From the IMG/VR virus record IMGVR_UViG_3300028601_000031, positions 8,228 to 72,227 of that record: a stretch of DNA of 64,000 bases; one strand, given 5' to 3'. Numbering within the stretch: the stretch's first letter is position 1; every line of letters starts with the position of its first letter. Source of the stretch: a virus. Its lineage: Duplodnaviria > Caudoviricetes. The translations under genes and the position numbers were made by a program. The notes beneath the pieces are model-generated. The model had not been told where the DNA came from, searched no databases, and saw only the letters and a program-made list of their open reading frames with translations. Below are positions 6,785 to 61,533 of the stretch, piece by piece.

Positions 6785-7951
6785 TTAATTAATTCTTAAT
6801 ATTTTCTTACATAATTCAACTTCATCTTTATCACCTGTATTTTTACCTTTATTATCTGAAAGTTTAACTGCAGGAATCCAATCATCATTGAATAAAACTT
6901 CTGAAATTTTAATAACCATATTTAATGGTTTAACACCCAGATCATTAGTTAAATATGTTCCAATTCCAAAGGCACTTTTAATTTTACCAACACAATATTC
7001 TTTTATTTGTGTTGCTAAATCAGTATTTAACCCGTCACTAAAAATAATAGTTTTTGACATAGGATCAATTCCCATTGATTTGTAATGATTTATTACCTTA
7101 TCAGTAAATTCAAATGGATCACCACTATCATGTCTAACTCCATCAAATAATTTAGATTGTTTCATATCAAATGATTTGAAGAAAACATCAGATGTATAAG
7201 TATCTGATAAAGCTATACCAAGCGATCCTTCATAGGTATTAACCCAGTTATCCAATGATAATTTATTTGACATTTTATAACCAAATAATGCAGCATGTAC
7301 CATAAACCATTCGTGTGCCATAGTACCTGTACATCTGATATTATATTTATATGCTAAAAAAATATTTGATGTACCTGTAAAAATAGGACAATCCTTATAA
7401 AGTGCTACAATTTTTTCTTGATTAAGGAATGAATATCTCCTTCTTGTTCCAAAGTCAGCAAAAAATGCATTATGATCAATCATTTTTTGTAGTTTATTTT
7501 TATCCTTTATTATGATTTTTTCATCATAAATATCAACGATTTGACCAGTTTTTTGAAAGTAAAGTTCTGATATGATTGCCATTAAAGGTACTTCCCATAG
7601 AATTGTACGAAACCAGAATCCTTCAATATCAATGTGTAATTTATTATTGTCATCTAAATAGACATCAACTTCTGATGAATCAAAACGATATCCACTTAGA
7701 AAATCAATATATGTAGGTGGTAGGAATTTTCCTAAATTTTTATTTACCCATGTTTTTTCGGATTGTGTTAAAAACAAAGATTCCATATTTTTAACTTCAT
7801 CCATAACATCTTTATCAAAATTATCAGGGAAAGAAATATTATTTCTATCTGTGAATTTATATCTAACCTTTTGATAAGGAAAATTTTTAACAACGGCGAA
7901 TCCCATTGTTAGTTTATAAAGATCGGTGTCTAAAATACTTTTGATTATCAT
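6785..7951 (-). CDS. pncB: Nicotinate phosphoribosyltransferase (probable ATG start at 7951)
   Basis: SILDTDLYKLTM, ADFGTRRR, GTSN, GTMAHEW, ALSDTY, GVRHDSGDP, IIFSDGL, FGIGT, KLSD motifs. Confidence 0.93.
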   Translation of the reverse strand: MIIKSILDTDLYKLTMGFAVVKNFPYQKVRYKFTDRNNISFPDNFDKDVMDEVKNMESLFLTQSEKTWVNKNLGKFLPPTYIDFLSGYRFDSSEVDVYLDDNNKLHIDIEGFWFRTILWEVPLMAIISELYFQKTGQIVDIYDEKIIIKDKNKLQKMIDHNAFFADFGTRRRYSFLNQEKIVALYKDCPIFTGTSNIFLAYKYNIRCTGTMAHEWFMVHAALFGYKMSNKLSLDNWVNTYEGSLGIALSDTYTSDVFFKSFDMKQSKLFDGVRHDSGDPFEFTDKVINHYKSMGIDPMSKTIIFSDGLNTDLATQIKEYCVGKIKSAFGIGTYLTNDLGVKPLNMVIKISEVLFNDDWIPAVKLSDNKGKNTGDKDEVELCKKILRIN

Positions 7952-7968
7952 ATAATTATATTTTAAGT

Positions 7969-8130
7969 TTATTTTTGTGATTCCCAAATTATTTGAATTT
8001 CTCTACCTGTTAGAGAATATAATACCCTATCATCGAAATATTGTTTACATAATTCAATTTTTACATCAGTGTCTAATTTATTCCACCATGCTAATGCAGA
8101 TATTCTTTTGTTTTGAAATTTAGTTAACAT
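7969..8130 (-). CDS. Small hypothetical protein (53 aa, not in the ORF track); paralog of 50632..50838
   Basis: MLTKFQNKRISALAWWNKL...YYSLTGREIQIIW; follows a TAnnTTTG promoter. Confidence 0.7.
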   Translation of the reverse strand: MLTKFQNKRISALAWWNKLDTDVKIELCKQYFDDRVLYSLTGREIQIIWESQK

Positions 8131-10043: not shown

Positions 10044-10289
10044 TTATCTTTGAAATATTGAAATAATTATACTTATAGTCATAAATAATATAACAATCGA
10101 TATAAATGCTATAGGAATATACATAATTTTCAATAGAATATCATAACCATTTATGTTATATGATATTGTTAGTGTTATAATTAAAAATAATGATATTAAT
10201 AGTTTAATACCTATATTTTTTTTAATTGCGTTTATTATTTTATCCATATTATTTAATATATTTTTCAGAGTATTCAAATCGAATACCAT
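10044..10289 (-). CDS. Small membrane protein
   Basis: Two hydrophobic segments. Confidence 0.55.
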   Translation of the reverse strand: MVFDLNTLKNILNNMDKIINAIKKNIGIKLLISLFLIITLTISYNINGYDILLKIMYIPIAFISIVILFMTISIIISIFQR

Positions 10290-10869
10290 TAATTTTCATT
10301 TCTTCTATGTGTGGTTTAATATCATTTGTTATGAATTGAGTAGCATCTAATACTAAAGTAGTATCAAATCCCTCATTTATACTATCAATAGCAGTATATT
10401 TAACACAAAAATCACCAGCTAATCCACATATAATAGTTTCTGTTACATTTTTTTCTTTAAGAAATTCCGATAAACCTGTTGAATTTTTATGATCATTATC
10501 AAAAAAAGCAGAATAACTGTCAACATCAGAATTCATTCCTTTTTTAAAAATATAAGAATTTGGCATTCCTATAATAATATCATCATGTATATCTGAACCT
10601 CTTGTATTTTGAACACAATGGTCTGGCCAAAGAACTTGTTGAATTCCATTTAAATTAACAATATCAAAAACGTTTTTGTTTTCGTATTGTGATGCAAACG
10701 ATTTATGATCAGATGGATGCCAATCTTTAGTAAAAATAATAATATCAAATTCTCCTTTTTGCGTTAAATCATTTATGATTGGTATGATTTTATTACTATC
10801 TTTTACTTCTAGATTTCCTCCTTCGAGAAAATCATACTGTACGTCAACTACAATTAGTGCTTTTTTCAT
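10249..10869 (-). CDS. pncA: Nicotinamidase/pyrazinamidase
   Basis: ALIVVDVQYDF..GG.L, KDWHP..H.SF, WPDHCVQ, KG....DSYSAF, GLAGDFCV. Confidence 0.93.
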   Translation of the reverse strand: MKKALIVVDVQYDFLEGGNLEVKDSNKIIPIINDLTQKGEFDIIIFTKDWHPSDHKSFASQYENKNVFDIVNLNGIQQVLWPDHCVQNTRGSDIHDDIIIGMPNSYIFKKGMNSDVDSYSAFFDNDHKNSTGLSEFLKEKNVTETIICGLAGDFCVKYTAIDSINEGFDTTLVLDATQFITNDIKPHIEEMKINGIRFEYSEKYIK

Positions 10870-11537: not shown

Positions 11538-12425
11538 TTAATAAAGTTTATTGTTAATAATATAATTTAAAACATCTCTATTCATATATTTTAATAATTC
11601 ATCATAATTACTACCATCGTTATAAAAAATTTTTAATTTATCTCTTATAAGTGTTGATGATACTTCTATAATTTTATTTTCATCTTTTAGATAAATATGA
11701 GGATAATTTAAATACCAATTTACAAATTCGTCTCTTTTTATACCTGTTCTTGGAATAACAACAAATTGAATTAATCTTTCTAATTCTTCATAATTAACCC
11801 ATTTATCAAAAGTATTTGCATTATCCATTCCTATAATTAATGAAAAATTATGTTTTTCTGTTAATTCTTTTTCTTCTTTTAATCTTTTAACAAAATTATA
11901 AGTGGCACCTGATAATTGATTATCAATTTCATAAGGAAATACTTTGATTCTATCATCTACTTTAGATGCAATTTCACACATATTTAATCTGTGTTCAGAT
12001 GATACCATTTCTTTATTGTACATATGTTTAAACGCAGGCATTAACCATACTTCATCAAATTCTCTTGATGTGTTTAAAACAAATTGTGCAGTTTGTATAT
12101 GTCCTTGGGTAATAGGGTTAAACGCCCCGCCAAATATAGCAACTTTTAATTTTCTACCAAGTGATTTATATTGTAATGATCTAGAATTTATTTTTTCTAT
12201 ATTATTTTGTATCAATTCATCTATTGTCCATCCACTTTCATTACATAATTGAATTAATGATGATAATAAGTCACCTGTTTCTTCTTTCAAATTGTGAATA
12301 TCTGACCATTTCATTAACTCAAAAAATTCTTTTTGAATATCATTTAATCTTTCGGTTAAAGGTGTATATCCAAAATTTTGTTTATATGTATTATTAATTA
12401 ATTTTTGTAATTTATTGGTTTCCAT
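11538..12425 (-). CDS. nadD: MazG-like NTP pyrophosphatase fused to nicotinate-nucleotide adenylyltransferase
   Basis: N-terminal KEFFEL...LKEETGDLL...NIEKINSR (MazG-like); C-terminal AIFGGAFNPITQGH, IIGMDN, VSSTLIR (NadD). Confidence 0.88.
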   Translation of the reverse strand: METNKLQKLINNTYKQNFGYTPLTERLNDIQKEFFELMKWSDIHNLKEETGDLLSSLIQLCNESGWTIDELIQNNIEKINSRSLQYKSLGRKLKVAIFGGAFNPITQGHIQTAQFVLNTSREFDEVWLMPAFKHMYNKEMVSSEHRLNMCEIASKVDDRIKVFPYEIDNQLSGATYNFVKRLKEEKELTEKHNFSLIIGMDNANTFDKWVNYEELERLIQFVVIPRTGIKRDEFVNWYLNYPHIYLKDENKIIEVSSTLIRDKLKIFYNDGSNYDELLKYMNRDVLNYIINNKLY

Positions 12426-26919: not shown

Positions 26920-26940
26920 AAACCGGATATTATCCGGTTT
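26920..26940 (-). terminator. Intrinsic terminator after the sigma factor gene
   Basis: aaaccggata-t-tatccggttt. Confidence 0.7.
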
Positions 26941-27799
26941 ATTCTATTCCATTGTCGTCAATGTATTTAAATTTCTTTTTGACAATTGACTGTATTAATG
27001 ATCGACCTTTGCTTATTTGAGATTTTATTGTTGATAAATTGGTATATGTTCTATATAAACAGTCTATTTGACTATTATTATCTATTTGAACATTTTTAAT
27101 ATTTTTTAATTCATTTTTATTAAAAATAAAAGTTTTACCTGGTTTTACTTCCATTTGTAAACAATCAGTATCATTATATTCAAAATTAATATAACAATAA
27201 TCAGTTCCATTATTTTTAATTTTTATATCTAAAAATTCTGACGCATTTGGTAAATCTATTTTATCCTTTTTATCAGTATTTATTATAATTTCTTTTGTGC
27301 ACATTTCAGCAATTTCTAAATATGGTCTATTTTCTATCTCCCTCATAATCATAACCTTTTTATATTTATCAGGTAGATTAAATATAGTACTTCTTACAAT
27401 TTCAGCCTTTTTAATAATTGATTTATCTAATTCTATATTATAATTATCATCTGTATCTATATTAGGGATAATATTAATAAGATTAAGATTATTATCATTA
27501 TAATCTTTGTCTAAAGATACTACAGACATTCTTTTTTTGTCCTTAAAATCTTTTTTTACTAAATTTTCAGCTATTTTATATAACCAAGTATGTATTTGAG
27601 ATTTTTCTTTATTATAGTTATTTATTTTTAATAATGCTTGTGTAAATGCATCATCAGCAAAATCTTCTGCTATATATTGATCTCTTGTATATCTTGTTAA
27701 ATACCATACTAATTTTGGTTTGTGTTTGTGATAGAATGACTCAAATTTTTGTCCAGTTATTTTTTCAAATTCAATAGATAAACTATTATTTTTTTTCAT
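26939..27799 (-). CDS. ECF-type sigma-70 factor with about 85-aa insertion in region 4
   Basis: Region 2 AEDFADDAF...TWLYKIAEN..KDF; region 4 LPDKYKKV..MREIENRPYLEIAEM [insert] NLSTIKSQISKGR. Confidence 0.85.
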   Translation of the reverse strand: MKKNNSLSIEFEKITGQKFESFYHKHKPKLVWYLTRYTRDQYIAEDFADDAFTQALLKINNYNKEKSQIHTWLYKIAENLVKKDFKDKKRMSVVSLDKDYNDNNLNLINIIPNIDTDDNYNIELDKSIIKKAEIVRSTIFNLPDKYKKVMIMREIENRPYLEIAEMCTKEIIINTDKKDKIDLPNASEFLDIKIKNNGTDYCYINFEYNDTDCLQMEVKPGKTFIFNKNELKNIKNVQIDNNSQIDCLYRTYTNLSTIKSQISKGRSLIQSIVKKKFKYIDDNGIE

Positions 27800-30848: not shown

Positions 30849-31496
30849 ATGAAATATTTAAAAACATATAGGAAACAATATAACTTTTGTAATGAATCCA
30901 TAAAACATTTTTTAAAGGGTAAAAGTAAGAATGAAATAATGAAAAAAACATCTAATTTAAAACCAATAGAAAAAATGAATTATGCAATTAAATATGGTAT
31001 AGACTGGTTAGCACAAGAAGCTATTGATGATGGAATTGACATTAATATGATATATATTGATTTAAGAACTGTTGTAATGAACAACGAAATTAGTATTTTA
31101 AAAATTTTAATTAATAATAAAATATCAATAAATGAACTCAATAGTGCAATTCTATATGCAATAGAACATAATAAATTAGATATATTAAAATTATTAGTTA
31201 ATTATGGTTGTGATATAAAAACTGATGATAATTTTATTGAATATTATAATTTTTATTTAACATATTTACAATTTGCTGTAATAAAATTAAAATCTGATGA
31301 TAATATGGTTAAATATTTAATTGATAATGGTGCTTATAATTATATTCCAAAAGAAATACTAGTAGATATATTAAATATGAATAAATTTGATGTAATTAAA
31401 GTATTAATAGATAATATTAAAGGTATGAAGGAAGCATATCAATATTTATACGATGAACATAAAAAAATAATTGAAAAATTAGAAAAAGTATTATAA
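30849..31496 (+). CDS. Ankyrin-repeat protein with MKYLKTY..NES leader
   Basis: AILYAIEHNKLDILKLLVNYGCDI, MVKYLIDNGA. Confidence 0.8.
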   Translation: MKYLKTYRKQYNFCNESIKHFLKGKSKNEIMKKTSNLKPIEKMNYAIKYGIDWLAQEAIDDGIDINMIYIDLRTVVMNNEISILKILINNKISINELNSAILYAIEHNKLDILKLLVNYGCDIKTDDNFIEYYNFYLTYLQFAVIKLKSDDNMVKYLIDNGAYNYIPKEILVDILNMNKFDVIKVLIDNIKGMKEAYQYLYDEHKKIIEKLEKVL

Positions 31497-31499
31497 TTT

Positions 31500-32669
31500 A
31501 TGAAATATTTAAAAACATATAGGGAACAATATAACTTTTGTAATGAATCCATAAAATATTTTTTAAAACCAAAAAAAGAAGAGGATGTATTAAATATTAT
31601 CAATAAATTAACACCCAAAGATAAATTATATAAAGGATGTACATATGGATTATTATCTGTTGTTAAAGATGCAATAGAAAAAGACGGAGTTGATCCATCA
31701 ATTAGTAGAAATGAACCATTAGAAATAGCATGTGAACATGGTAATATAGATATTGTTAAATATTTATTAACTTTTGATTCAGTTGATCCTTCTACAGATA
31801 GAAATAGTCCAATTATATCTGCTGCAATGTATGGATATGAAGATTTGGTAAAATTATTATTAAAAGATGAAAGAGTTGACCCATCTGATAAACATAATAG
31901 AGCATTAAAAAAAGCAGATCAAAATAAATATAATAAAATTGTTAAAATACTTTTAAACGACGATAGAGTTATAAATAGATTAAAAATGGATGATGAATTA
32001 TCATTTTATATAAGAGAAAAAAATTATGAAAATACAAATGAAAGTTTAAATGTATCTAAATACGAATGGGAATATAGTAGAATAAATAATAAAGTTGGTA
32101 AATTATATTATGCATCAAAATATAAATTATCGGTCGCAAATCTATATGAACTATCTAAATTATTAACTAATTTTTCTGATAAGGAAGTAATGTTAATGAC
32201 AATAACAGCAATATCGATATTAACAAGGGAAAGTAAAGAAAAAGTTGAAAAATTATTTGAATTATTATCACAATACAATATAAGTCAAAAAGATATAGAT
32301 AATCTAGTTAATAAGTTCACTACTATAAAGAATATATTTAAGGTTGTTGCATCAAAATACGATATAGTAATAAATAATATTTATGATATGTTATCGAATA
32401 CGACTTTATTAATACCATTTATAAACGTTTTAATAACATTAATAGAACATCAGAAGTTAAATATAGATATTTTATCTAAACCCTTAAATGATATTAAAAA
32501 TGAATTAGGTGACGATAAATATAATTTAATGTTTGATAGAATTGAAAGGAAATTATCTATAATGGTATCAAATACATCTAAATTTAAAGATGTTAAATAC
32601 ACTGAACCATATAGAAAAAGTCATGAATTAAAACCAATTCATATGAGAACAAAAAGAATTACATTATAA
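31500..32669 (+). CDS. Ankyrin-repeat protein with MKYLKTY..NES leader and unrelated C-terminal domain
   Basis: VDPS..N..L..A...G...IVK.LL repeats; internal TNESL. Confidence 0.85.
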   Translation: MKYLKTYREQYNFCNESIKYFLKPKKEEDVLNIINKLTPKDKLYKGCTYGLLSVVKDAIEKDGVDPSISRNEPLEIACEHGNIDIVKYLLTFDSVDPSTDRNSPIISAAMYGYEDLVKLLLKDERVDPSDKHNRALKKADQNKYNKIVKILLNDDRVINRLKMDDELSFYIREKNYENTNESLNVSKYEWEYSRINNKVGKLYYASKYKLSVANLYELSKLLTNFSDKEVMLMTITAISILTRESKEKVEKLFELLSQYNISQKDIDNLVNKFTTIKNIFKVVASKYDIVINNIYDMLSNTTLLIPFINVLITLIEHQKLNIDILSKPLNDIKNELGDDKYNLMFDRIERKLSIMVSNTSKFKDVKYTEPYRKSHELKPIHMRTKRITL

Positions 32670-33938
32670 ATGAAATATTTAAAACCATATAGGAAACAAA
32701 GTAACCTTTGTAATGAATCTATAAAACATCTTCTAAAACCTAAAAGTGAAGATGATATAAAAAATTCTATAATGAAATCAAATTCATCAGATAGACTAGA
32801 TAAAATTTTTAGATTTAAATTAAATCACTTATTTAGTGATGATGAAATATTAGAAATATGTAAAAATTTAACACCAGATGAAAAGTTATATAAGGGTACA
32901 AGACATAATATACCTATTTTAATCAAACAGTCCATATTAGACGGTGTAAATACTGGTAAAAATAATCAAATGTTAATAAAATTCGCATCACAAAATGGAT
33001 ATCCTGATATTATAGAAATGTTATTAAAAGATGATAGAGTTAATCCAGTAGTTCATAATAATCTACCAATTGCATACGCTGCAGAAAATGGACATTTAGA
33101 TGCTGTTAAAGTATTAATGAATGATAAAAGAGTTGATCCATCAGATCATAATAATGATGCTATAAAATATGCATTAAGAAATAATCATTTAACTGTAGTT
33201 AAAGAATTATTAAAAGATAAAAGAGTTGTTGATAAATTAGAACCGGATGATAGATATAAAATTAGAATAGAATTGGAACATGGTTATAAATCATTATTTA
33301 AAGATATAGAAAGAAAAATGAAATCAAATGAATCCATAAAACATCTTCTAAAACCTAAAAGTGAAGGTGATATATTAAAAACAGTTGAAAAATTATCACC
33401 ACAAGAAAAATTACAACACGCTTGTGAATATGGTATTCTTTGGTTATTTAAACAAGCATTGGATGAAGGTGCAAATCCTGCATATCAAGATAATTATCCT
33501 ATAAGATACGCATCAGCAGGTGGACATTATACAATAGTTAAAATATTATTAAGTTTTGATAGTGTTGATCCATCAGATTTAAATAATGTTGCTATACAGG
33601 TTGCTCATTATTATAAACATAAAGATGTTGTGGAATTGTTATTAGATGATAAAAGAGTTAAAAAATCACTACCTAAACATTTATTAGAAAGGTATATAAA
33701 ATATGTATATGATGATTTACATGAATCAAATATAATAAGAATTAATGAGTTTGTTCAAAATGATGATATAAAATATTGGGCATTATACTATCATATTTAT
33801 GATAATTTTTTCTCCAAATTAGATAATAGAGAAGAAATTCAAGAATTAAGAAATAAACTAATTGATGAATTTGGTGAAGAATTAGCACCAGTTATCAACT
33901 TTTTTGCTGATTATAGACTTAAAAAATTGGATATTTAA
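32670..33938 (+). CDS. Ankyrin-repeat protein with two leader-plus-ankyrin modules
   Basis: NESIKHLLKPKSE occurs twice; AENGHLDAVKVLM.D.RVDPS repeats. Confidence 0.85.
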   Translation: MKYLKPYRKQSNLCNESIKHLLKPKSEDDIKNSIMKSNSSDRLDKIFRFKLNHLFSDDEILEICKNLTPDEKLYKGTRHNIPILIKQSILDGVNTGKNNQMLIKFASQNGYPDIIEMLLKDDRVNPVVHNNLPIAYAAENGHLDAVKVLMNDKRVDPSDHNNDAIKYALRNNHLTVVKELLKDKRVVDKLEPDDRYKIRIELEHGYKSLFKDIERKMKSNESIKHLLKPKSEGDILKTVEKLSPQEKLQHACEYGILWLFKQALDEGANPAYQDNYPIRYASAGGHYTIVKILLSFDSVDPSDLNNVAIQVAHYYKHKDVVELLLDDKRVKKSLPKHLLERYIKYVYDDLHESNIIRINEFVQNDDIKYWALYYHIYDNFFSKLDNREEIQELRNKLIDEFGEELAPVINFFADYRLKKLDI

Positions 33939-34638: not shown

Positions 34639-36093
34639 TTAATTTAAATAACTATTTAATATATTATCGATATCATCAATATCATTATAAGGTATTCTCA
34701 GTAAATTTATGTTATTATTTTTACAATATTCGGTTTTAATGGAATCTCTTAATTTTTGTTTTTTAAATGATTTAATTCCACCAAAATATTCATTAACTTC
34801 AAAATGTTGTTTACCGTCAAATTCAATACATAAATTATAATCAGGTATATAAAAATCAAATTTTAAGGGGTTTATATGTTTACAGTCTTTGAAGGATTTT
34901 TGGTGTATGTGATCAATTTTATTATCATTTAAATATTTTTTTATGGATAATTCACCTTTAGATGATTTACATATAGGACATCCATTATTTTTAATGTGAT
35001 ATTTTGGTTTTTGTTCAAAAATACCATGAATCGGACAAATTATTTTTACTTCAGTTAAATTATTTTTATACTTAACTAATGAATAATCATATTTATCATT
35101 ATGTATTTCTTTTGAATCTTTAATAAATTGTTCATAATTCTTTCTTTTTTTACCACTACAATCATAACACCCTTTATTTGTTAAATGACTACTTGGTAAT
35201 TGTTCAAAAATACCATGAATCGGACAAATTATTTTTACTTTAGTATAATTGTTTATATATTTAACTAAAGAATAATCATATTTATTATTGTGTAATTTTA
35301 CAGATCTATCAATAAAATCAACTGTTGTTAATTTTTTATTATTAGAACATACAGGACATCCAGATCCATTTAGATGATCAATTGATGATTGATTAAAAAT
35401 ACCATGTTTCGAACAAATTATATTAATTTTTATCATAGTGTTTTTATAATTAACTAAAGAGTAATCGTATTTATCACCATGAATATTTTTACATTTTTTT
35501 ATAAATTGTTCTGTCGTTAATATATTTTTTGCACACTTATTACAACCTATATTTAACAGATGACTATTTGGTGTTTGTTCAAAAATACCATGAACTGGAC
35601 AAATAATTTTAACTTTTGTTTTGTTATTTTTATATTTAACTAACGAGTAGTCATATTTATTGTTATGAATTATATTTGAACGTTTTATAAATTCATCTTT
35701 ATTCAATCTACTATTACCATAACACAGTGGACATCCTTGTTTATTCAAATGATTTTTTGGTGTTTGTTTAAATTCACCATGTTTTTTACATATAATAATA
35801 ACTTTTGTTTTAACATTAATATAGTTAACTAAACTATAATCATATTCAAAATTATGAACAATATTTGATTTATTTATAAATTGTTCTTTGGTAAATTTTT
35901 TATTTATAATCGCGCATTTAGGACAACCATTATTAATATGATTATCTGGTCTTTGTTCAAATATTCCGTGTTCTTTACATATTATTTTAACTTTAGTCTT
36001 ACTATTTATATAATCAACTAAAGAATAGTCATATTTATAATTATGTTTTTCGTTTGATTTATTTATAAACTCTTCTTTATTTGACTTTTTCAT
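34639..36093 (-). CDS. Zinc-repeat (6x) PD-(D/E)XK homing-endonuclease-like protein
   Basis: Six CxxHG repeats plus FDFYIPDYNLCIEFDGKQHF. Confidence 0.8.
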   Translation of the reverse strand: MKKSNKEEFINKSNEKHNYKYDYSLVDYINSKTKVKIICKEHGIFEQRPDNHINNGCPKCAIINKKFTKEQFINKSNIVHNFEYDYSLVNYINVKTKVIIICKKHGEFKQTPKNHLNKQGCPLCYGNSRLNKDEFIKRSNIIHNNKYDYSLVKYKNNKTKVKIICPVHGIFEQTPNSHLLNIGCNKCAKNILTTEQFIKKCKNIHGDKYDYSLVNYKNTMIKINIICSKHGIFNQSSIDHLNGSGCPVCSNNKKLTTVDFIDRSVKLHNNKYDYSLVKYINNYTKVKIICPIHGIFEQLPSSHLTNKGCYDCSGKKRKNYEQFIKDSKEIHNDKYDYSLVKYKNNLTEVKIICPIHGIFEQKPKYHIKNNGCPICKSSKGELSIKKYLNDNKIDHIHQKSFKDCKHINPLKFDFYIPDYNLCIEFDGKQHFEVNEYFGGIKSFKKQKLRDSIKTEYCKNNNINLLRIPYNDIDDIDNILNSYLN

Positions 36094-41392: not shown

Positions 41393-42610
41393 TTAAATAT
41401 TATACATTGGACAAGCTATACCTTTTGATTTATTATCAATTGTTATATTAGCAAATTGTCTAACTCTATCAGAAAACCATATATCTTTAATAAAATCATC
41501 ATATTCTAATACTGATATACCATTTTCCCAATCAATATTATCATCTTTAACTTTTTCCGAAAAAGAACAAGGATAAAATTTTGGATCACCATTTTCACCA
41601 GAATTTATATAAAGTGAATAAATACTTGATTCACAACTTTCTGCATATTTTTCTAATTTTTTTGCATCTTCTCTATCTTTTATAGATTTTATAAATTTTG
41701 GTTGTGAACAAGAATCAAATCCTATTGGTGCATTATTTTCAAATGCAAAATCAATTAATTCTTTAAATTTTTCATCACTTAATCTTGTATATGCGCTTTG
41801 TACTGCTCTTCCTTTTGGTTTAAGACTAAGAAAAACAATAGCATTTAATTTTTTTAATCTTTTATCTGTTTTATAATCTTTTATTAATTGAATAGCATTA
41901 TCAAATGTTTGTTCTGCTATCATGAAATGAATATTTACCTGTTTCATTCCTCTACTAGTTAATTCTTTAACAGCATTATATGTTAAATCTTTATCATATA
42001 AAGAAACTGCAACTGCTCCCATAGTAGATGATAGTTTATCGAATAAATGAGATGTCATTCTATCACCATTAATGGTAACATTTGGAACTACTCCATTTGA
42101 TTTTGTATATTCAAAAATATCCCACATATCAGGATTAGCATCAATATCCGTAATACCAAATGCAATTTGTCCAATTGTAGCAGGTAGTTTAGAAAATAAT
42201 TTTTTAAATGTATCTAATGTCATATTTCCTTCGCCTGTTGGTAAGTTTGATTTATAACAGAAACGACAAGGTCCTATTCCACTTACACCATGGCAAGATG
42301 TTGATATTTCGATATCAGCTATTTCAGGTAAACCTAATGATAAATTACCATCAGTATCTAAATCTAGTATAAACTCTTTAACATTAAATTTTTCTTGCCA
42401 TATATTACACCACAAAAGATATAAATCAACTTTATCTTTACTTAATTCTGGTTTCTTTGTATAATCACCTTTACCCCATCTAATAAAAAATCCATTATTT
42501 TTATTGAATATAAAATTATATTTTTCACTTTTAAGTACTTTATATTCAATATTATCTTTTATGATAGCATTAGAACCGTCAAATAATTGTATATTATATA
42601 TTTTTTCCAT
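41393..42610 (-). CDS. Radical SAM protein with CX8CX2C motif and SPASM/Twitch-like C-terminus
   Basis: DIEISTSCHGVSGIGPCRFCYKSN; VPNVTING; AVAVS; CES..YSLYIN...YPCSF...CPMY. Confidence 0.85.
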   Translation of the reverse strand: MEKIYNIQLFDGSNAIIKDNIEYKVLKSEKYNFIFNKNNGFFIRWGKGDYTKKPELSKDKVDLYLLWCNIWQEKFNVKEFILDLDTDGNLSLGLPEIADIEISTSCHGVSGIGPCRFCYKSNLPTGEGNMTLDTFKKLFSKLPATIGQIAFGITDIDANPDMWDIFEYTKSNGVVPNVTINGDRMTSHLFDKLSSTMGAVAVSLYDKDLTYNAVKELTSRGMKQVNIHFMIAEQTFDNAIQLIKDYKTDKRLKKLNAIVFLSLKPKGRAVQSAYTRLSDEKFKELIDFAFENNAPIGFDSCSQPKFIKSIKDREDAKKLEKYAESCESSIYSLYINSGENGDPKFYPCSFSEKVKDDNIDWENGISVLEYDDFIKDIWFSDRVRQFANITIDNKSKGIACPMYNI

Positions 42611-42612
42611 AA

Positions 42613-43023
42613 TTAATTATTATACTTTTTCATAAAGTCAACAACAGATGAATATATTGACTTAATTAATGATTCGTCAATACTATATGATATAACATTT
42701 TTATCAAAAGAATATTCACCTATTTCAGAAAAAGTTGTTACATATAATACTTTATCATCGAAGACATTTTTAATACTAAATCTATAATTAAAACCATTTA
42801 GTGATTTTAATTTAGATATTTTTTTAACAACTGGCATTATCCAATCAAATGATTTAGAAAATTTTAATTCATCATCATTATCAGATAATCCACTTATAAT
42901 TAATTCTTCATGATCAATATCTGTTCTACCATTTTTTTTGGGTATCCAACAATTTTCATCTACACTAAACTCAAGATTCATAAATTTAGCAATTATAATA
43001 TCACCAATTAAATTTTTATTCAT
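42613..43023 (-). CDS. Hypothetical phage protein
   Basis: IIAKFM...LKFSKSFDWIMPVVKKI pattern. Confidence 0.7.
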   Translation of the reverse strand: MNKNLIGDIIIAKFMNLEFSVDENCWIPKKNGRTDIDHEELIISGLSDNDDELKFSKSFDWIMPVVKKISKLKSLNGFNYRFSIKNVFDDKVLYVTTFSEIGEYSFDKNVISYSIDESLIKSIYSSVVDFMKKYNN

Positions 43024-44008
43024 CGAAATTTGTATTTAAATAATTTAGCCAAAAAATTCTAGCTTTTGCAGATATAGCTTTTCCAATTTTTTTAATATTA
43101 ATATTATTTTTCTCTATTGTATCTGATTCTTCCTTAATAACATCATTATAAACCCACTTCAAGTAATCTGCAGTAGATTTATCAATAATTGGAATATTTA
43201 ATTCTCTCATTTTATCAATACCTTGTGTCAATCTATTTTCAGTGACAGCATAATCGACAAAAGACTTAATATTTTCAATTTCCTCAATATCAACAGTAGT
43301 TAAAGTTTTTACTTTACTTACTTGGTGTTTTTCTCCTTTAACTTTAAAAATATATCTTTTATTATCATTAATATGTTCCCACACAATCCCTTCTCCTGTT
43401 CCTGATACATCAAAATATTTTCCAATAGGGCATTCTTTTTCTACATTATTAGTTAATTCAGATAATATATTTATTGATAATTCAGGTCGATTAAAATTAA
43501 TATCTATTTCAAAATTAGGAAATTGTAATATATTAAAAATTAATTGATCTTCGTTTTTTATATGTGCAAAATTAGACATATCTTTATAAAGACCATCTAT
43601 TTTTATAGCAAAAATAACAAACATTTTAGGTAATTGGGATATTGCCACTTTTTTCTGAATACCCTTACCACACCATTCACCATAAATAGCACAATATTCA
43701 TTAAACTGAATATTATCAAATAATTTTTGATAATCTTTTTTAATCATTTCATTCATGAAATTATAATTATCTTCAGTTAATGATAATTCAGATTCTCTGG
43801 ATTGAAATTTATATGTACCATCAGCATATTTAACAATAGATGAGTTAGAACCATGTAATTTTACAGTTCCTCTAAATTTCATTGTAGGGTATGGTGTAGT
43901 ATGATTAAAAATAGCTTTACCATCATCATTCTTACCTGCATAATCATGACTATCTTTAACCTGTCTAATGACATTTCTAAATTGTTCTATTTCGGTAAAT
44001 TTTTTCAT
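43016..44008 (-). CDS. ATP-dependent RNA ligase (Rnl2-like); probable start MKKFTEIEQFR
   Basis: Motif I VKLHGSN, QSR, IYGEWCG.GIQK, GEGIVW, FKVKGEKH. Confidence 0.8.
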   Translation of the reverse strand: MKKFTEIEQFRNVIRQVKDSHDYAGKNDDGKAIFNHTTPYPTMKFRGTVKLHGSNSSIVKYADGTYKFQSRESELSLTEDNYNFMNEMIKKDYQKLFDNIQFNEYCAIYGEWCGKGIQKKVAISQLPKMFVIFAIKIDGLYKDMSNFAHIKNEDQLIFNILQFPNFEIDINFNRPELSINILSELTNNVEKECPIGKYFDVSGTGEGIVWEHINDNKRYIFKVKGEKHQVSKVKTLTTVDIEEIENIKSFVDYAVTENRLTQGIDKMRELNIPIIDKSTADYLKWVYNDVIKEESDTIEKNNINIKKIGKAISAKARIFWLNYLNTNFDE

Positions 44009-44009
44009 T

Positions 44010-44339
44010 TTAATCTTTTTGGTATTTAGATATTTGTGTAATTTCATTATGGGTGAAACCAGATCTTTCTAAAGCTTCAGCAAAAGGAATCCATACATTT
44101 TCTTTTTGTGGTTCACCAGAACAATAACCATAATAATCTCTAGTTCCCCACCTATCTACAACAGCTTTAGTTCGTGCTACTAGTTTATTTTTATCTTTAA
44201 TAAGTTTAGCCATTCTAGATGCGCATGATTGAAAAGGAGCACCATTACCATAAAATGTACGTCCGTTAAACTGAAGACTATCTGCTCTTTCGTAATCTTT
44301 TTTAGTTGGGATAATTTTATCAATATCTATTCCATTCAT
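44010..44339 (-). CDS. Hypothetical protein
   Basis: First gene after the promoter at 44355-44386. Confidence 0.65.
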   Translation of the reverse strand: MNGIDIDKIIPTKKDYERADSLQFNGRTFYGNGAPFQSCASRMAKLIKDKNKLVARTKAVVDRWGTRDYYGYCSGEPQKENVWIPFAEALERSGFTHNEITQISKYQKD

Positions 44340-44663: not shown

Positions 44664-44960
44664 TTATTTTATGTTTTGTGGTATATTATCATCAAATAAC
44701 ATTGATATACTTAATTGACTTTGTATCATTTCCAAAAATAAATACTTACACATTGTCCAATCATAATTTGCACCTGTTCTACTAATAACTTCCCCATCAT
44801 CATTATAATGTGGTGTAGTTTGACTAATATTATATTTTGACATAATATCATAAAATTTATTTTTACAGTCTGATATGGTATCGGTGTCATTAAATTTTAA
44901 TGATATGATTTCTTTTGCAATATCGTTCATTTTATTTTCCATTTTTAACATTTTTAACAA
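44664..44960 (-). CDS. Hypothetical protein
   Basis: Operon ORF. Confidence 0.6.
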   Translation of the reverse strand: MLKMLKMENKMNDIAKEIISLKFNDTDTISDCKNKFYDIMSKYNISQTTPHYNDDGEVISRTGANYDWTMCKYLFLEMIQSQLSISMLFDDNIPQNIK

Positions 44961-45642
44961 TTAATTGATTATCAATTTGTTCCAATTCTATTTCTTGGAT
45001 ATCTTTTGTTGATTTTATATGATCTATAAATTCAATAAAACCATCTTTAAATGATTTTTCTTGTTTAAATTTTCCACTTCGATATGATTTTTTAAATTTT
45101 CTAAATAGTTCATTTAATTCATTTAATGTAAATGGGTAATTATCAGAATTTTCTAATACAGTTATTTTTTGATCTAAAATAGAACCAAACCAATAAGTAC
45201 CATCGGTTTTAAATTTTATTTTATCATCTACTTTTAAACATAAACCATAGTTATCTTCAATAACACTACCAATATAAGTTTGATAACCTAAATTTTCATA
45301 TTGTGATTGATTTGGGAATGGTTTAGGTTGTTCTAATTCATAAATAGTAGTAACTGATAAAATATTACCAACTTTCCAAGGATCTATGTATTTACTGATA
45401 TCAAATACTGGTATATTTTCAAGTTCAAATGATGAATAAATAACCCTTTTAGTATTTTCACAAATTGCATTCAATTTACCTTTTGGTGTTCCATCATTTT
45501 TAAATAGGTACCATCCTCTACCTGATAAATTAATACCATGTGCAAATGAAACACCATAATCACCAATTTCAACTTTATCGTCTGTAGTGATAACGTATCC
45601 TTCTTTTACTTTAAATAGATTTTTATTAATTATTGCTTTCAT
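44932..45642 (-). CDS. Hypothetical protein
   Basis: Long ORF directly downstream of the ncRNA. Confidence 0.7.
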   Translation of the reverse strand: MKAIINKNLFKVKEGYVITTDDKVEIGDYGVSFAHGINLSGRGWYLFKNDGTPKGKLNAICENTKRVIYSSFELENIPVFDISKYIDPWKVGNILSVTTIYELEQPKPFPNQSQYENLGYQTYIGSVIEDNYGLCLKVDDKIKFKTDGTYWFGSILDQKITVLENSDNYPFTLNELNELFRKFKKSYRSGKFKQEKSFKDGFIEFIDHIKSTKDIQEIELEQIDNQLIVKNVKNGK

Positions 45643-45668: not shown

Positions 45669-45824
45669 GTATTGCTATTTGAGTTGGATTCGAACCAACA
45701 GGCGGATGCCTCCTTTTCTACAACCATTCACATTTCTGCGGTCAGGAATCGAACCTGAGAGAGCAACCACTGATCACACACCGAGTTGAACGGGCTACCT
45801 ACCAATCTGTTCAAATAGCAATAC
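45669..45824 (-). ncRNA. tRNA-like structured RNA with two T-arms (not a canonical tRNA)
   Basis: 14-bp closing stem GTATTGCTATTTGA/TCAAATAGCAATAC; T-arms GTTGG-TTCGAAT-CCAAC and TCAGG-TTCGATT-CCTGA; locally GC-rich. Confidence 0.75.
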
Positions 45825-45828
45825 TATA

Positions 45829-45859
45829 CAAAGATATAAAAATATTTTTAATAAACAAA
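45829..45859 (-). promoter_or_regulatory. Bacteroidota promoter (TTTG-N19-TATCTTTG) immediately upstream of the ncRNA
   Basis: The -7 element ends 4 nt before the closing stem. Confidence 0.75.
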
Positions 45860-45861
45860 AT

Positions 45862-46050
45862 TTAATAACAATATGAATCGTCATTTTCACCAGAAGGATA
45901 ATATAAACTTTTACCTAAACTATTTATTTCATCTCTTTCTTTTTCCAATTCACGTCTATTGCTTTCAATGATTCTCCTATTAACTTTAGATTCCCATCTT
46001 TTTGATTTTGCTTTATTAATATTTTTTCTTACTTCATTTCTCCAACTCAT
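45862..46050 (-). CDS. Small basic protein
   Basis: Operon ORF. Confidence 0.55.
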   Translation of the reverse strand: MSWRNEVRKNINKAKSKRWESKVNRRIIESNRRELEKERDEINSLGKSLYYPSGENDDSYCY

Positions 46051-47115: not shown

Positions 47116-48554
47116 ATGAACTACACATTAGCTAAAGACTAATGTGTTTCAGGAATATACCTTCTCTTTAATCGTTTCATTGCTTATGCCATTTAATTCC
47201 GAGAAATTATTTGGTCTTATTTTTGCTCCGCGATCGTTATCAGATGTTCCGTCTGATATATTTAATCTTAATCCTTCTTTTAATATATTTATGGCTGCAT
47301 TAATATCTCTATCTAGTTTAGCACCACATTTATTACATATCCATTTTCTTTGATGAAGTTTTAAGTTTTGATTTATATGACTACATTTATTGCAAGTTTT
47401 AGATGAAGGGAAAAATCTATCTACTTTAATTAATTGTTTATCGTTCCAATCACATTTATAACTTAAAATATCGATGAATCTACCCCAGCTAACGTCAGAA
47501 ATTGATTTAGATAGTTTTCTATTTTTAATCATTCCTTTGATATTTAAATCTTCAATGTAAATAGTATCAAATTCATTAATTAGTTTAAATGTTATTTTAT
47601 GTAACATATCTGATCTAGAATTTGAAATCTTTTCATGGATTCTACAAACTTTTAATCTTTGTTTTTCGTATCTTTTTGATCCCCTTGTTTTTCTTGATAA
47701 ATGTTTTTGATTTAAACTTAATTTTCTTTCATATTTCTTTAAATATCTGATGCCCTTGGTTTTCGAACCATTAGATAGAGATATGAAGTCATTTAAACCT
47801 AAATCCATACCAATATTTTTATTGGTTTTTTTAACTGGTTGATATTCTTTTTCGACTAAAATTGAAACATAATATTTACCAGTTGAGGTCTTTGATATAG
47901 AACATTTTTTAATTAAACCTTCTATATTCCTGTGTTTAACCATTTTAATCCCACCTTTAAACTTTGGTATAATTAAATAGTTATCTTCTACCTTTACACT
48001 CTGTGGTACAGTAAAGGTATTTTTTGTTTTTCTACTTTTAAATCTAGGAAATCCACTTCTTTTTTTAAAAAATGATTGGTATGCTATATCCAAACAATTT
48101 AAACTATATTGTAAGGTCTGTGAATTAATTTCTTTTAACCACTGATAATCAGGATCTTTTTTAAGTTTAGTTAAAAAAGAAGATTGTTGGTTATAAGTTA
48201 TAGATTTTTTATTATTAACGTATTCTTCTTTTCTTTGGTTTAAAAAATGGTTGTATACAAATCTGACACATCCAAAATACCTATTTAAAATATATTGTTG
48301 TTCTTTATCAGGGTTTAACCTGAATTTATATGTATATATTATATTTTTCATCTTTATAGTAATTAATTCCTTTACTATAAATATATATTAAATGAAAAAT
48401 ATCACTTTTTTCCATTTTTACAATTTAAATATCTAACAGATTGATTATTAGTTATTTAAATTTTAAAAATATTTTTAAAAAATTAAATTCAATTGAAATT
48501 TATTGAAATTCATCCCTCTAACTAAAGATTAGATGGTTTTCTTTCAAGGTGAAT
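47116..48554 (-). mobile_element. Non-autonomous IS200/IS605-family (IS1341-like, tnpB-only) element
   Basis: Subterminal hairpins sharing a ctaaaga loop (47123-47147 and about 48515-48536), right end ...TTCAT, TTTAT target motif 5' of the left end, no target-site duplication. Confidence 0.8.
47149..48351 (-). CDS. tnpB: RNA-guided endonuclease TnpB
   Basis: N-terminal YKFRL.P...FGCVRFVYN; RuvC IGMDLG / IEDL / DRDINAA; zinc finger CNKC..CNKC. Confidence 0.95.
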   Translation of the reverse strand: MKNIIYTYKFRLNPDKEQQYILNRYFGCVRFVYNHFLNQRKEEYVNNKKSITYNQQSSFLTKLKKDPDYQWLKEINSQTLQYSLNCLDIAYQSFFKKRSGFPRFKSRKTKNTFTVPQSVKVEDNYLIIPKFKGGIKMVKHRNIEGLIKKCSISKTSTGKYYVSILVEKEYQPVKKTNKNIGMDLGLNDFISLSNGSKTKGIRYLKKYERKLSLNQKHLSRKTRGSKRYEKQRLKVCRIHEKISNSRSDMLHKITFKLINEFDTIYIEDLNIKGMIKNRKLSKSISDVSWGRFIDILSYKCDWNDKQLIKVDRFFPSSKTCNKCSHINQNLKLHQRKWICNKCGAKLDRDINAAINILKEGLRLNISDGTSDNDRGAKIRPNNFSELNGISNETIKEKVYS

Positions 48555-48702: not shown

Positions 48703-49392
48703 TTAATTTATTATTTTAATTGAATATGATGGTATATTATCATAAGTATAATATGCATCAATATTAGTATATTTTGGATCTTTATATAATTTTATTTTTG
48801 GTAATGATTTAATATTTATTTTTAATTTAACAGGATTAAAATCTTCAACATAATATGATTTATTAGATATGAATGAATTTATATCATCAACACTTTCAAA
48901 TAAGTAAATTCTATCCGGATGATTATCTATCATCTTATTGGATTTCGGTGTTAATCCGATTTGTTTTATTTTATTAATATGTTTTTCATCTGTAACATGA
49001 TATAAAAACAATTTAATACCAGTATCTTCAAAATCAAAATTTTTATTAAATACAATATTTAATTTTTCACTATTCATAAAAATATTAATGTTTAAATTTA
49101 AATATTCTGTTTCATTATTGTCTTTTTTATAAGATGATATATAATAACCAGAAATATTTAATAAACTAATAATATCATTATATAAATTTATATTCTTAAT
49201 AGGTTTAAAATTTATTAAAAATATACCATCTTCAGATTGTATCAAATCATATTCTTCTATTTTATATTTAGTTAAAATATCATTTAATTTTTCTTTGAAT
49301 TTAGAGTATGAAAATGAGTATATTAATCCTTCTTGAATTAAATGTTCATTTTTATTTTCAAATGCCTCTTTAAACTGATTAAAATTTAACAC
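48703..49392 (-). CDS. ADP-ribosyltransferase-fold (Tpt1/ART-like) protein with capsid-targeting-like leader
   Basis: LYHVT...KI...GL.PK....PDRIYL...L.I...LYKDP....YTYDNIP; N-terminal MLNFNQFKE..LIQEG. Confidence 0.6.
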   Translation of the reverse strand: MLNFNQFKEAFENKNEHLIQEGLIYSFSYSKFKEKLNDILTKYKIEEYDLIQSEDGIFLINFKPIKNINLYNDIISLLNISGYYISSYKKDNNETEYLNLNINIFMNSEKLNIVFNKNFDFEDTGIKLFLYHVTDEKHINKIKQIGLTPKSNKMIDNHPDRIYLFESVDDINSFISNKSYYVEDFNPVKLKINIKSLPKIKLYKDPKYTNIDAYYTYDNIPSYSIKIIN

Positions 49393-55261: not shown

Positions 55262-56209
55262 TTACAAAGATCCAAATAATTCTTGACTAATTGATTTCCC
55301 GTTACTAACTCTTTTAATAGCCTTAGCTAACATTTCATCAATTGATAATACTTTTATTTTATTACTTAATCCATGTTTAATTGGAATAGAATCAGTAACA
55401 ATTAATTCTGTTAATTTAGAATTATTAATATTATTATAAGCGTTACCTGATAGTATAGGATGACAAATAAGAGCCCTTACTGATTTTGCACCAGATTCCA
55501 TCAAAAGATCAGCAGCTCTTGAAATAGAACCACCGGAATCGATTATATCATCAATTAAAAAGACATCTTTATCTTGGACATCTCCAATAAGTTTCATAGT
55601 AGAAATAACACCAGGTTTTGATCTTTCTTTATGAATAACCACTAAATCTGTTTGTAATACATTAGAATAACGACTTGCTCTTTTTGTTCCACCTACATCT
55701 GGCGTTGCAATAACCATATTATCAGTATCGAAGTTTTCTTTAATATATGGTATGAATACATAACTAGAACTTAAATGATCAACGGGTATATCAAAAAATC
55801 CTTGAATTTGGTCACAGTGCAAATCGAGTGTAATAATTCTATTAGCACCTGATGTAGTTAATAAATCCGCCATTAATTTTGCTGAAATTGGAACTCTTGG
55901 TTTATCTTTTCTATCTTGTCTAGCATAACCAAAATATGGAATAACTGCTGCTATTCTCTTAGCAGATGCTCTTTTTGCAGCATCTAACATTAAAAATAAT
56001 TCCATCATACTATCATTAGAATTGGTTGATTGTATAATGAAAACATTGTCTTTTCTAATTGATTGATTATAATGAACTAATATTTCACCATCAGTAAATT
56101 TTTTAAGTTCAATATCATTCAAAATTGCTTCCTTATTATTAAAATAGGACTCAACTACCTTTTTAGATAGTTGTGGAATTGATGTACCTGAAAAGATTTT
56201 TATTGCCAT
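55262..56209 (-). CDS. prs: Ribose-phosphate pyrophosphokinase
   Basis: FTDGE, PYFGYARQDRK, DLHCDQIQGFF, PDVGG, DDIIDSGGS. Confidence 0.95.
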   Translation of the reverse strand: MAIKIFSGTSIPQLSKKVVESYFNNKEAILNDIELKKFTDGEILVHYNQSIRKDNVFIIQSTNSNDSMMELFLMLDAAKRASAKRIAAVIPYFGYARQDRKDKPRVPISAKLMADLLTTSGANRIITLDLHCDQIQGFFDIPVDHLSSSYVFIPYIKENFDTDNMVIATPDVGGTKRASRYSNVLQTDLVVIHKERSKPGVISTMKLIGDVQDKDVFLIDDIIDSGGSISRAADLLMESGAKSVRALICHPILSGNAYNNINNSKLTELIVTDSIPIKHGLSNKIKVLSIDEMLAKAIKRVSNGKSISQELFGSL

Positions 56210-58003: not shown

Positions 58004-58564
58004 TTACAAATTTTTATGTTTAATATTTGTTATGCTAATGTATTTAGCAGGTACAAAATCAGTTAACCAAACTTTATTTTCAGATAAATAAAATTTATAA
58101 CCATCTTCGTACATTTTCTTTGATTCTATTCTTAGAATTACTGGTTTTAAAGTCTTTGCATGTCTTTGACCAACATGAAATGCTGTCAATTTATTGTCAG
58201 ATAAATGAACAAATTTTCTTGACATTTTATACAATCCATTTTGCATAATACTATCAATAACTGTTGGTGTTGTACCATGAAATAAAAACATTGGAGGTTC
58301 TAATTCTGCAAATTTAATAGTAACAAAATCAATTGAATGTCCCTGATTTGCTCTTATTTTCAATTCACCATCAAAATACTTATATGAGTATCTTTGTTTA
58401 TCATCCTTAAATACAAGCATATCCAATGTATCTTTATCTGTTTTGATTAAAGATAATAATTCTTTAATACTAACCCAACCGTCTTGATCCATTTTCATTC
58501 CTCTTGGATCATGTCGAAGCAAGTAAGCTAGCTTCTTTGATATTTTCATTAAATCCTTTTCCAT
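58004..58564 (-). CDS. kptA: RNA 2'-phosphotransferase (Tpt1/KptA)
   Basis: SKKLAYLLRH, DDKQRY, IRANQGHS, LFHGT, MSRKFVHLS, VWLTDFVP. Confidence 0.93.
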   Translation of the reverse strand: MEKDLMKISKKLAYLLRHDPRGMKMDQDGWVSIKELLSLIKTDKDTLDMLVFKDDKQRYSYKYFDGELKIRANQGHSIDFVTIKFAELEPPMFLFHGTTPTVIDSIMQNGLYKMSRKFVHLSDNKLTAFHVGQRHAKTLKPVILRIESKKMYEDGYKFYLSENKVWLTDFVPAKYISITNIKHKNL

Positions 58565-61131: not shown

Positions 61132-61533
61132 TTAATTTAAGAAGTTTAACATTTCTTCAAATCTCCAAAAAATTCTAGACATAGCTTCATCTTTATCTAC
61201 AAAACCTGCCCAATCAATTTCTCTTTTTTGTAGTTTATTCTTATCTATAACTATTTCTTTATTTAAATTAACTAAAAAATATATTAACTCTTTATAAACA
61301 TATCCCTTTTCATTCTTATATTGAATTTTATATGGTTTTTTATCAATATATTTTGATTTTATTTTAATTCCTACTTCTTCTTCTGTTTCTCTTATTGCTG
61401 CTTCTATATATGTTTCATCTTCTTCTACTTTACCTTTTGGTATAGAATATGTACCATACCAAGGAGCATTAGTTGGATGAACTAAAAGTATCTTATTATC
61501 ATATATAATTAATAATCCTGCTGATGTTTGCAT
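61132..61533 (-). CDS. NUDIX hydrolase
   Basis: Nudix box PKGKVEEDETYIEAAIRETEEEVG. Confidence 0.92.
   Translation of the reverse strand: MQTSAGLLIIYDNKILLVHPTNAPWYGTYSIPKGKVEEDETYIEAAIRETEEEVGIKIKSKYIDKKPYKIQYKNEKGYVYKELIYFLVNLNKEIVIDKNKLQKREIDWAGFVDKDEAMSRIFWRFEEMLNFLN

Follow-up and report, generated by a model that had tools for sequence, protein, structure and literature searches.

A 156-nucleotide tRNA-like RNA with two nested T-arm modules in a very large phage

Non-decoding phage RNAs that resemble tRNA have a history going back to T4 RNAC; to our knowledge, none of them has an assigned function. In YrlA, a relative of the Y RNAs, a domain that mimics tRNA, with features of both T-arm and D-arm, is closed by a terminal helix. 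The available text of PMC3014915 states the role of RNAC as unknown; that of PMC7824862 reports a ROT/TROVE protein with a tRNA-like partner in some jumbo phages, and describes ligases, KptA and nicotinamide adenine dinucleotide (NAD) synthesis in jumbo phages as RNA-repair and counter-defence equipment. Here we describe a tRNA-like RNA of 156 nucleotides (nt), recognised by its sequence, fold, GC content and T-loop words, on the minus strand at 45669-45824 of a 64,000-nt stretch of the virus record IMGVR_UViG_3300028601_000031 (Caudoviricetes; record positions 8,228-72,227). All coordinates refer to this stretch, the window; within the RNA, position 1 is window position 45824 and position 156 is 45669. 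The parent IMG/VR record is 72,227 nt long with a CheckV completeness of ~18%, so that the source is a very large phage. The RNA is a previously undescribed tRNA-derived RNA, akin to the poorly understood kind to which T4 RNAC belongs.

Structure of the RNA and its variation in a related contig

The two ends of the RNA form a perfect 14-nt inverted repeat (positions 1-14, 45811-45824, and 143-156, 45669-45682; this and all other elements of the RNA are on the minus strand). The 3' arm of this closing stem runs straight on from the outer T-arm, GUUGG-UUCGAAU-CCAAC (126-142, 45683-45699). The 5' arm is followed by a D-loop-like single strand that has no D-stem (15-31, 45794-45810); it holds AGAUUGGUAG at 17-26, and its ATTGGTA motif is found also in 2 of the 7 phage Leu tRNAs compared and in the Leu-like genes of another phage locus, L141 (see below). 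Next comes helix P2, 7 base pairs (bp) with one G-U pair, formed by positions 32-38 (45787-45793) and 95-101 (45724-45730). P2 carries an inner mini-tRNA of 45 nt (42-86, 45739-45783) without an anticodon arm, made of a 3-bp CGG/CCG stem, a D-arm (50-64) with the D-loop-like word AGUGGUU, a 2-nt link, and the inner T-arm UCAGG-UUCGAUU-CCUGA (67-83, 45742-45758). A small hairpin, GGA/4-nt loop/UCC, occupies the variable-arm position (112-121, 45704-45713; pairs 112-114/119-121). A canonical T-arm of the acceptor-stacked type, with a 5-bp stem and a UUCRAnn loop, is therefore found twice, at 126-142 and 67-83; both T-loops have the G-C closing pair, and each is preceded by a D-loop of the A-G-(Y)-Y-G-G-U type.

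An anticodon arm with a 5-bp stem and 7-nt loop is absent from the sequence of the RNA, its place being taken by P2 and the mini-tRNA; no CCA is encoded after the closing stem; and the closing helix has 14 bp, as against the 7-bp acceptor stem of canonical tRNA. With no anticodon loop, no CCA and a long closing helix that is itself selected (see below), the RNA should be unable to decode, and we think it very likely to be a non-decoding tRNA-like RNA. Each element that an earlier note on this DNA had listed for the minus strand is present in the sequence, and its description of a tRNA-like RNA with two T-arm/D-loop modules agrees with these elements. We depart from it on the pairing of the variable-arm hairpin: a small hairpin does exist at that position, but the pairs proposed in the note are broken by a G115>U change in the variant described below, so that the 3-bp GGA/UCC hairpin, the sole reading compatible with both sequences, is favoured. 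Vienna prefers AGGC/GCCU at this position instead, a pairing that G115>U likewise breaks.

ARAGORN finds no tRNA or transfer-messenger RNA (tmRNA) gene in the whole window, and calls nothing on the element in intron mode (0-150 nt). Rfam gives no match at gathering thresholds; a sensitive scan of 501 nt with E up to 10 yields three unrelated weak matches only, none of them tRNA, and RF00005 has no match across the 72-kb record with E up to 10. There is accordingly no tmRNA from either ARAGORN or Rfam, no group I or ribozyme family from Rfam that would go with an intron-containing tRNA, and no Rfam family at threshold for a Y RNA or YrlA. This is what the earlier note had anticipated for an RNA that is neither a canonical tRNA nor a member of an Rfam family.

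The element stands out from its surroundings. The word GGTTCGAWTCC, with at most 1 mismatch, occurs just twice in the 64 kb when both strands are counted, both times inside the RNA, against 0.41 occurrences expected, and at least 2 occurrences are seen in 3 of 100 shuffles. The GC content of the RNA is 43%, compared with 15-30% in the flanks. A 171-nt fold has z = -2.42, equally stable folds being obtained in 2 of 200 shuffles. No open reading frame (ORF) of more than 40 amino acids (aa) overlaps the element.

The fold can be compared with that of a natural variant, L221, a 16-kb contig of a metagenome-assembled genome that was reached via a relative of the 236-aa protein encoded next to the RNA (see below), and that shares 97.8% identity with the window across 4349 nt. 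In L221 the RNA lies at 2797-2952, scores 179 bits against R1, a model of the RNA, and differs at 12 of 156 positions. Two base pairs have changed on both sides. C7>A together with G150>U turns C-G into A-U in the outer half of the closing stem, pair 7/150 being the eighth counted from the T-stem, beyond the 7-bp acceptor length; G50>U together with C64>A turns G-C into U-A in the 4-bp D-stem of the inner module. In addition, A38>G converts A38-U95 of helix P2 into G-U, and, in the inner D-stem, C53>U converts C53-G61 into U-G while U52>G replaces the U52xC62 mismatch by G-C. All 7 substitutions at paired positions thus retain or create pairs, and no helix of the refined model is broken. The other 5 changes are in loops or linkers, including G134>A, a purine-to-purine change at the outer T-loop position equivalent to 57; the outer D-loop strand (15-31) and the inner T-arm are unchanged. 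A contig of an independent run, X4, has the same seven differences across positions 52-150.

In the refined structure 98.8% of cells are paired and two double changes are seen, against none in all six slid registers. When 12 random substitutions were simulated 200,000 times, no pair was broken in 0.13% of cases, and at least 2 compensated doubles arose in 0.32%. A shuffle control, uninformative with just two sequences, gave 120/500; the inference of selection uses the slid registers and the simulation. From the compensatory and pair-retaining changes in L221 we conclude that the fold is in all likelihood under selection, including the closing helix beyond the 7-bp acceptor length and the inner mini-tRNA. 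The unconserved remnant that the earlier note had envisaged as a possible outcome is at odds with these compensatory changes. The predicted secondary structure is established by sequence together with covariation, and the two tertiary elbows would follow from the canonical T-loop and D-loop consensus. That this is a real, selected and structured RNA is a claim we make with high confidence.

Promoter, neighbouring genes and genomic setting

A promoter of the form TTTG-N19-TATCTTTG, in which the second part matches TAnnTTTG, lies on the minus strand at 45829-45859, its end 5 nt short of the first position of the RNA, and L221 has an identical motif. The window contains 14 copies of the general motif TTTG-N18-21-TAnnTTTG, where 4.26 would be expected; 0 of 100 shuffles reach this count. 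Of these copies, 13 are on the minus strand, which is the coding one, and most of the 14 stand directly upstream of ORF starts. ATTTAA frequently follows the first TTTG in promoters of this class. We take TTTG...TAnnTTTG to be the Bacteroidota sigma-A consensus; a plain sigma-70 scan was unremarkable. The phage has a sigma-70-family gene of its own (26939-27799), and the promoter could be read equally by this factor as by that of the host. What the earlier note had called a host promoter is thus retained as the RNA's own promoter motif, the host being one of its two possible readers.

The RNA is followed after 26 nt by a 236-aa ORF (44932-45642, minus strand). Neither a promoter motif nor an intrinsic terminator is found in this gap, so that the two are probably co-transcribed, and the RNA would form the 5' part of the transcript unless it is excised. 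Of the 24 runs covered, X23 is the sole one labelled transcriptomic; it contains just a 35-nt T-arm-like piece with 5 mismatches, which speaks neither for nor against expression. Directly upstream of the RNA is a 62-aa basic ORF (45862-46050, minus strand), the third member of the cassette. Divergence between the window and L221 is 5.8% in the 62-aa ORF, 7.7% in the RNA and 7.2% in the 236-aa ORF, compared with 0-1.8% in the neighbouring 70-aa, 98-aa, 147-aa and 85-aa ORFs and in TnpB. The rest of the block would predict 3.16 differences in the RNA, where 12 are seen, ~4 times the rate of most of the flanking DNA; because this divergence is shared, the high rate is a property of a ~1.1-kb module. 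The pattern suggests that the 62-aa ORF, the RNA and the 236-aa ORF are one co-inherited module, which looks to have been exchanged, or to be evolving fast, as a unit.

The 236-aa protein has no match in Pfam or PHROG and no lead in the Atlas; its AlphaFold model has a mean predicted local distance difference test (pLDDT) score of 35, too low for use, and it has just six relatives in a large protein collection, of which P0002-P0004 are 60-80% identical. In run X12 there is almost no depth over the bin containing the RNA, and a joint 45109>46073 (one contig, with a 21-nt side) might mean a variant that lacks the cassette, though it is too weak to use.

An RNA ligase (PF09414, PHROG 548; 43016-44047, minus strand) is encoded 1.6 kb downstream of the RNA; a phmmer search with it against PDB gave no matches. 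Alignment of L221:4283-4921 with window positions 43016-44339 reveals a 674-nt deletion that removes ligase residues 1-148, so L221 keeps the RNA without the N-terminal half of the ligase, and the link between the two is weak. Because of the shared divergence, and because the ligase is truncated in L221 where the RNA is intact, the RNA appears to have a closer tie with the two orphan ORFs that flank it than with the ligase. The earlier note had suggested that the RNA might be processed by this ligase and by Tpt1. The idea comes down to proximity: the ligase is 1.6 kb away, and the Tpt1 gene, which is real (Tpt1/KptA RNA 2'-phosphotransferase, PF01885, E = 1e-41; 58004-58564), lies 12 kb upstream.

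Further out, a radical-SAM-like 405-aa gene (41393-42610) is 12.9% diverged in L221 and makes a second mosaic hotspot. TnpB (OrfB_IS605 with a Cas12f-like TNB domain; 47149-48351) is encoded 1.3 kb upstream of the RNA, and L221 has it with 100% identity. A TnpB guide RNA was considered and rejected on position, since the TnpB gene ends at 47149, 1.3 kb from the element. A 229-aa ORF at 48703-49392 has no match in Pfam or PHROG.

The window as a whole has a GC content of ~15-30%, and nearly all genes are on its minus strand. Pfam searches with its ORFs identify a ClpA/B-like ATPase, ClpS, ClpP, DnaJ, a sigma factor, ankyrin-repeat proteins and TnpB. A ClpA/B-like AAA+ ATPase, the adaptor ClpS, the protease ClpP and a full DnaJ are encoded by the phage itself (18662-21121, 22053-22400, 36153-36815 and 37779-38843). 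There is an apparent NAD+ salvage set, namely nicotinate phosphoribosyltransferase (NAPRTase), an isochorismatase/nicotinamidase-like protein, a cytidylyltransferase-like-MazG fusion, phosphoribosyl pyrophosphate (PRPP) synthetase and a NUDIX protein (6785-7987, 10249-10869, 11538-12425, 55262-56209 and 61132-61533). DUF4379, a treble-clef zinc finger, is found in three paralogues (1290-2573, 5805-6719 and 34639-36093), two of which also have DUF723. Three consecutive ankyrin-repeat proteins are encoded on the plus strand at 30849-33938, opposite to nearly all other genes.

Possible function and competing explanations

Taken as a whole, the observations are best explained by a genuine phage gene for a structured, non-decoding tRNA-derived RNA that acts as a mimic, an account that we place just short of probable. 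Transcription would start at the promoter that ends 5 nt upstream, as its motif implies. The 14-bp terminal helix would stack on the canonical outer T-arm into a 19-bp coaxial helix, and the Leu-tRNA-like outer D-loop would dock on the outer T-loop, making the first elbow; in the place of the anticodon arm, the 7-bp helix would hold the mini-tRNA, with its short stem, D-arm and T-arm, as the second elbow. Molecular mimicry would then mean that proteins able to recognise the shape of tRNA are presented with one or two of its elbows. Possible partners are host tRNA-processing enzymes, tRNA-targeting defence nucleases or toxins, and a protein of the RNA's own cassette, which may be sequestered or recruited during infection. 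The setting lends some support, in that RNA ligase, Tpt1 and NAD salvage genes are genes of tRNA/RNA repair and conflict. A bolder version, which we regard as rather unlikely, is that the RNA represents a new counter-defence or takeover class, a double-elbow mimic on a long helix, encoded together with a small basic protein and the orphan protein of 236 aa in a cassette that diverges fast, and neutralising or redirecting a host factor that recognises tRNA shape; a tRNA-targeting immune nuclease or toxin, RNase P/Z and the CCA-adding enzyme are the candidate targets. If this version is true, the RNA would be an analogue of protein anti-defence decoys.

A number of points count against the mimic. 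The function as mimic or decoy, the latter already suggested in the earlier note, is something we infer purely, and hold as a tentative possibility, and the partners named above are candidates only. The ends of the RNA and its transcription are predicted from sequence. Folding energy alone favours an alternative long hairpin for the inner region, the inner D-stem was put into the structure model from the reference sequence by the analyst, and the outer module has no D-stem at all. The covariation comes from two sequences and a single informative variant. Finally, no homologue with the same architecture was found with model R1 in 70 + 6 loci, and none in five related phage records, including one complete genome of 321 kb; exact and degenerate pattern scans of IMG/VR did not find the architecture, tandem tRNAs making up most of the matches listed in one of them, and exact-pattern scans of GTDB returned L221/L222 only. 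The RNA is therefore lineage-restricted. Searches of INPHARED with blastn and megablast likewise gave nothing with nested elbows.

Two further candidates were considered. An attP-type remnant of a host tRNA was rejected, no GTDB genome having the outer T-arm with the 3' strand. A double-T-arm element in L020 has an 11-nt string in common with the inner module; it has a fold z of -0.47 and aligns poorly.

Of the alternatives to a mimic, one would make the RNA a cis-acting 5' leader of the downstream operon, from the 236-aa ORF onward, serving as an RNase P/Z-type processing signal or a stabiliser of the 5' end of the mRNA. The uninterrupted 26 nt between the RNA and the ATG, with neither promoter motif nor terminator, and the joint membership of RNA and 236-aa ORF in one diverged cassette, are in favour of such a leader, as is the excision of T4 tRNAs and small RNAs from longer transcripts. 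We nevertheless judge it unlikely: two elbows, with covariation in the D-stem and the closing stem, exceed by far the needs of a stabilising hairpin, and the helices of the RNA are better conserved than the spacer that separates it from the ATG. A leader would also be compatible with a role in trans of the released RNA. In another explanation, the RNA is an interrupted Leu-like tRNA, from which the mini-tRNA is excised like an intron by RNase P and RNase Z, leaving 3'-OH and 5'-phosphate ends that the ligase reseals into a decoding tRNA. The Leu-like outer D-loop would fit, and so would the ATP-dependent RNA ligase 1.6 kb downstream and the conserved anticodon-loop inserts in other phage tRNAs (L121/L197 and the L052 family, see below); moreover, removal of 42-86 leaves ...ACU joined to CAGAAAUG..., in which CUCAGAA would be a loop with the Leu anticodon CAG. 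The joined exons, however, make a 7-bp stem with an 11-nt loop, and the 5 nt on each side of CUCAGAA do not pair (3/5 at best). With the outer module lacking a D-stem, ARAGORN intron mode empty, covariation at 7/150 selecting a helix longer than an acceptor stem, and the RNA retained in L221 where ligase residues 1-148 are lost, splicing into a functional tRNA is very improbable.

To about the same small extent we credit decay, with the element as the non-functional remains of two tRNA genes that became nested by recombination or insertion. In favour of decay are that no tRNA caller used accepts the element, that its distribution is restricted, and that it diverges at ~4 times the rate of most flanking DNA (12 differences against 3.16 expected). 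This divergence is common to both flanking ORFs, however, and is thus a property of the cassette, and the covariation disfavours decay: 7 of 7 paired-position substitutions retain or create pairs, and two pairs are compensated. In addition, the 14-bp stem is perfect, both T-arms are intact, the GC content is 43% in a genome of ~25% GC, and a consensus promoter stands at the right distance. An RNA of the Y or YrlA type, in which the long stem binds Ro (Rsr/TROVE) and the tRNA-like domain tethers an exonuclease for RNA quality control or repair, would share with the element a terminal helix closing a tRNA-like domain. The Ro site in the stem of Y RNAs is a bulged conserved helix; the stem of the window RNA is a perfect AU-rich duplex without such a helix. 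There is precedent in the jumbo-phage ROT/TROVE protein with its tRNA-like partner (in the available text of PMC7824862). A TROVE/Ro domain was detected by Pfam in none of the 84 window ORFs scanned, the record being ~18% of the genome, and no Rfam match was obtained. A Y/Yrl-like role had been put forward in the earlier note; it stays conjectural, and we consider it the remotest of the explanations weighed here.

Relation to other tRNA-like RNAs

Homologues of the ligase provided 5 metagenome loci and 80 IMG/VR loci in which comparable RNAs could be sought. Most of the 80 have neither a tRNA nor a T-loop near the ligase. Upstream of the ligase, at a distance of a few hundred nt, two lineages, L121 (= L124 = L132) and L125 (= L135), have a tRNA-like gene whose anticodon arm is abnormal; these genes score 36.3 and 33 bits, respectively, against Rfam tRNA, and the insert in L121 is 55 nt long. 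The ligases of these loci are 61-65% identical to that of the window, and no other flanking gene is common to them and the window. With R1, L121 scores 22.6 bits, little more than the 18.4 bits of an ordinary tRNA-Cys, too small a margin to establish orthology of the window RNA with the tRNA-like genes of L121 and L125.

Other unusual tRNA genes were noticed in the same material. L121:5268-5397 and L197:510-637, from phages whose ligases are just 44-65% identical to that of the window, share in the anticodon loop a structured, conserved insert of ~48-55 nt, with a compensatory change from GCC/GGC to CCC/GGG (by inspection); ARAGORN gives the two copies different anticodons. L141:1848-3002 contains 4-5 tandem Leu-like tRNA paralogues with covarying acceptor stems and enlarged, dissimilar anticodon arms, which standard ARAGORN misses. 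L052:4786-4901, L066 (minus strand) and L054:1650-1790 form a tRNA-like family with a T-arm nested inside the anticodon stem, in which the inner T-stem covaries (AGGG/CCCU to AAGG/CCUU). ARAGORN in intron mode calls L121, L197, L141, L052 and L066, and not L125. The window RNA points in this way to a wider set of phage tRNA genes that are unannotated and whose anticodon arm has a structured insert, and that standard finders miss or call inconsistently.

Within that set, the window RNA is a clean and compact case: two predicted canonical elbows are nested, the fold is selected, and the RNA has its own promoter motif and belongs to a fast-diverging cassette, in a part of a jumbo phage where genes of RNA repair and NAD salvage abound. 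It is a tractable object for asking what role mimics of tRNA shape have in infection.

The phage genes just described resemble the window RNA in retaining the top half of tRNA and in having a replaced or expanded anticodon arm (L121/L197, L125, L141 and L052/L066/L054), and the L052 family also has a T-arm nested in the anticodon region. They differ in that they still score as tRNAs and carry inserts unrelated in sequence; a second case of the nested-elbow design was not encountered in the loci and pattern scans made. Class II tRNAs of the Leu type share with the window RNA the coaxial stack of acceptor and T-arm, the canonical T-loop, the extra hairpin before the T-arm and a D-loop of the AUUGGUA type, which T4 tRNA-Leu has and likewise a tRNA-Leu(aag) from a phage. 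They have, in contrast, the D-stem, anticodon stem-loop and CCA that the window RNA lacks (the D-stem in its outer module), whereas the latter has a 14-bp terminal helix with a selected pair at 7/150.

YrlA, which acts with Ro/Rsr, resembles the window RNA in the terminal helix that closes a tRNA-mimicking domain. The window RNA differs from it in having two predicted elbows and not one, in their normal, not permuted, order, and in giving no Rfam match. T4 species 1 RNA (RNAC; 139 nt, AF158101 70908-71046), has a fold z of -4.57. Like the window RNA, it is a small stable phage RNA (~140-156 nt) whose terminal stem runs on directly into a canonical T-arm (CCGGG-UUCGAAU-CCCGG in T4), with a long arm in the place of the anticodon arm and a further hairpin where the variable arm would be. 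There is no homology between them in sequence or model, R1 not matching rnaC. RNAC is encoded inside a tRNA gene cluster, whereas the 72-kb record has no tRNA, and it has one T-arm and no nested mini-tRNA, while the closing stem of the window RNA is a perfect 14 bp. RNAC and the Y-like RNAs are, without homology in sequence, the closest to the window RNA in architecture.

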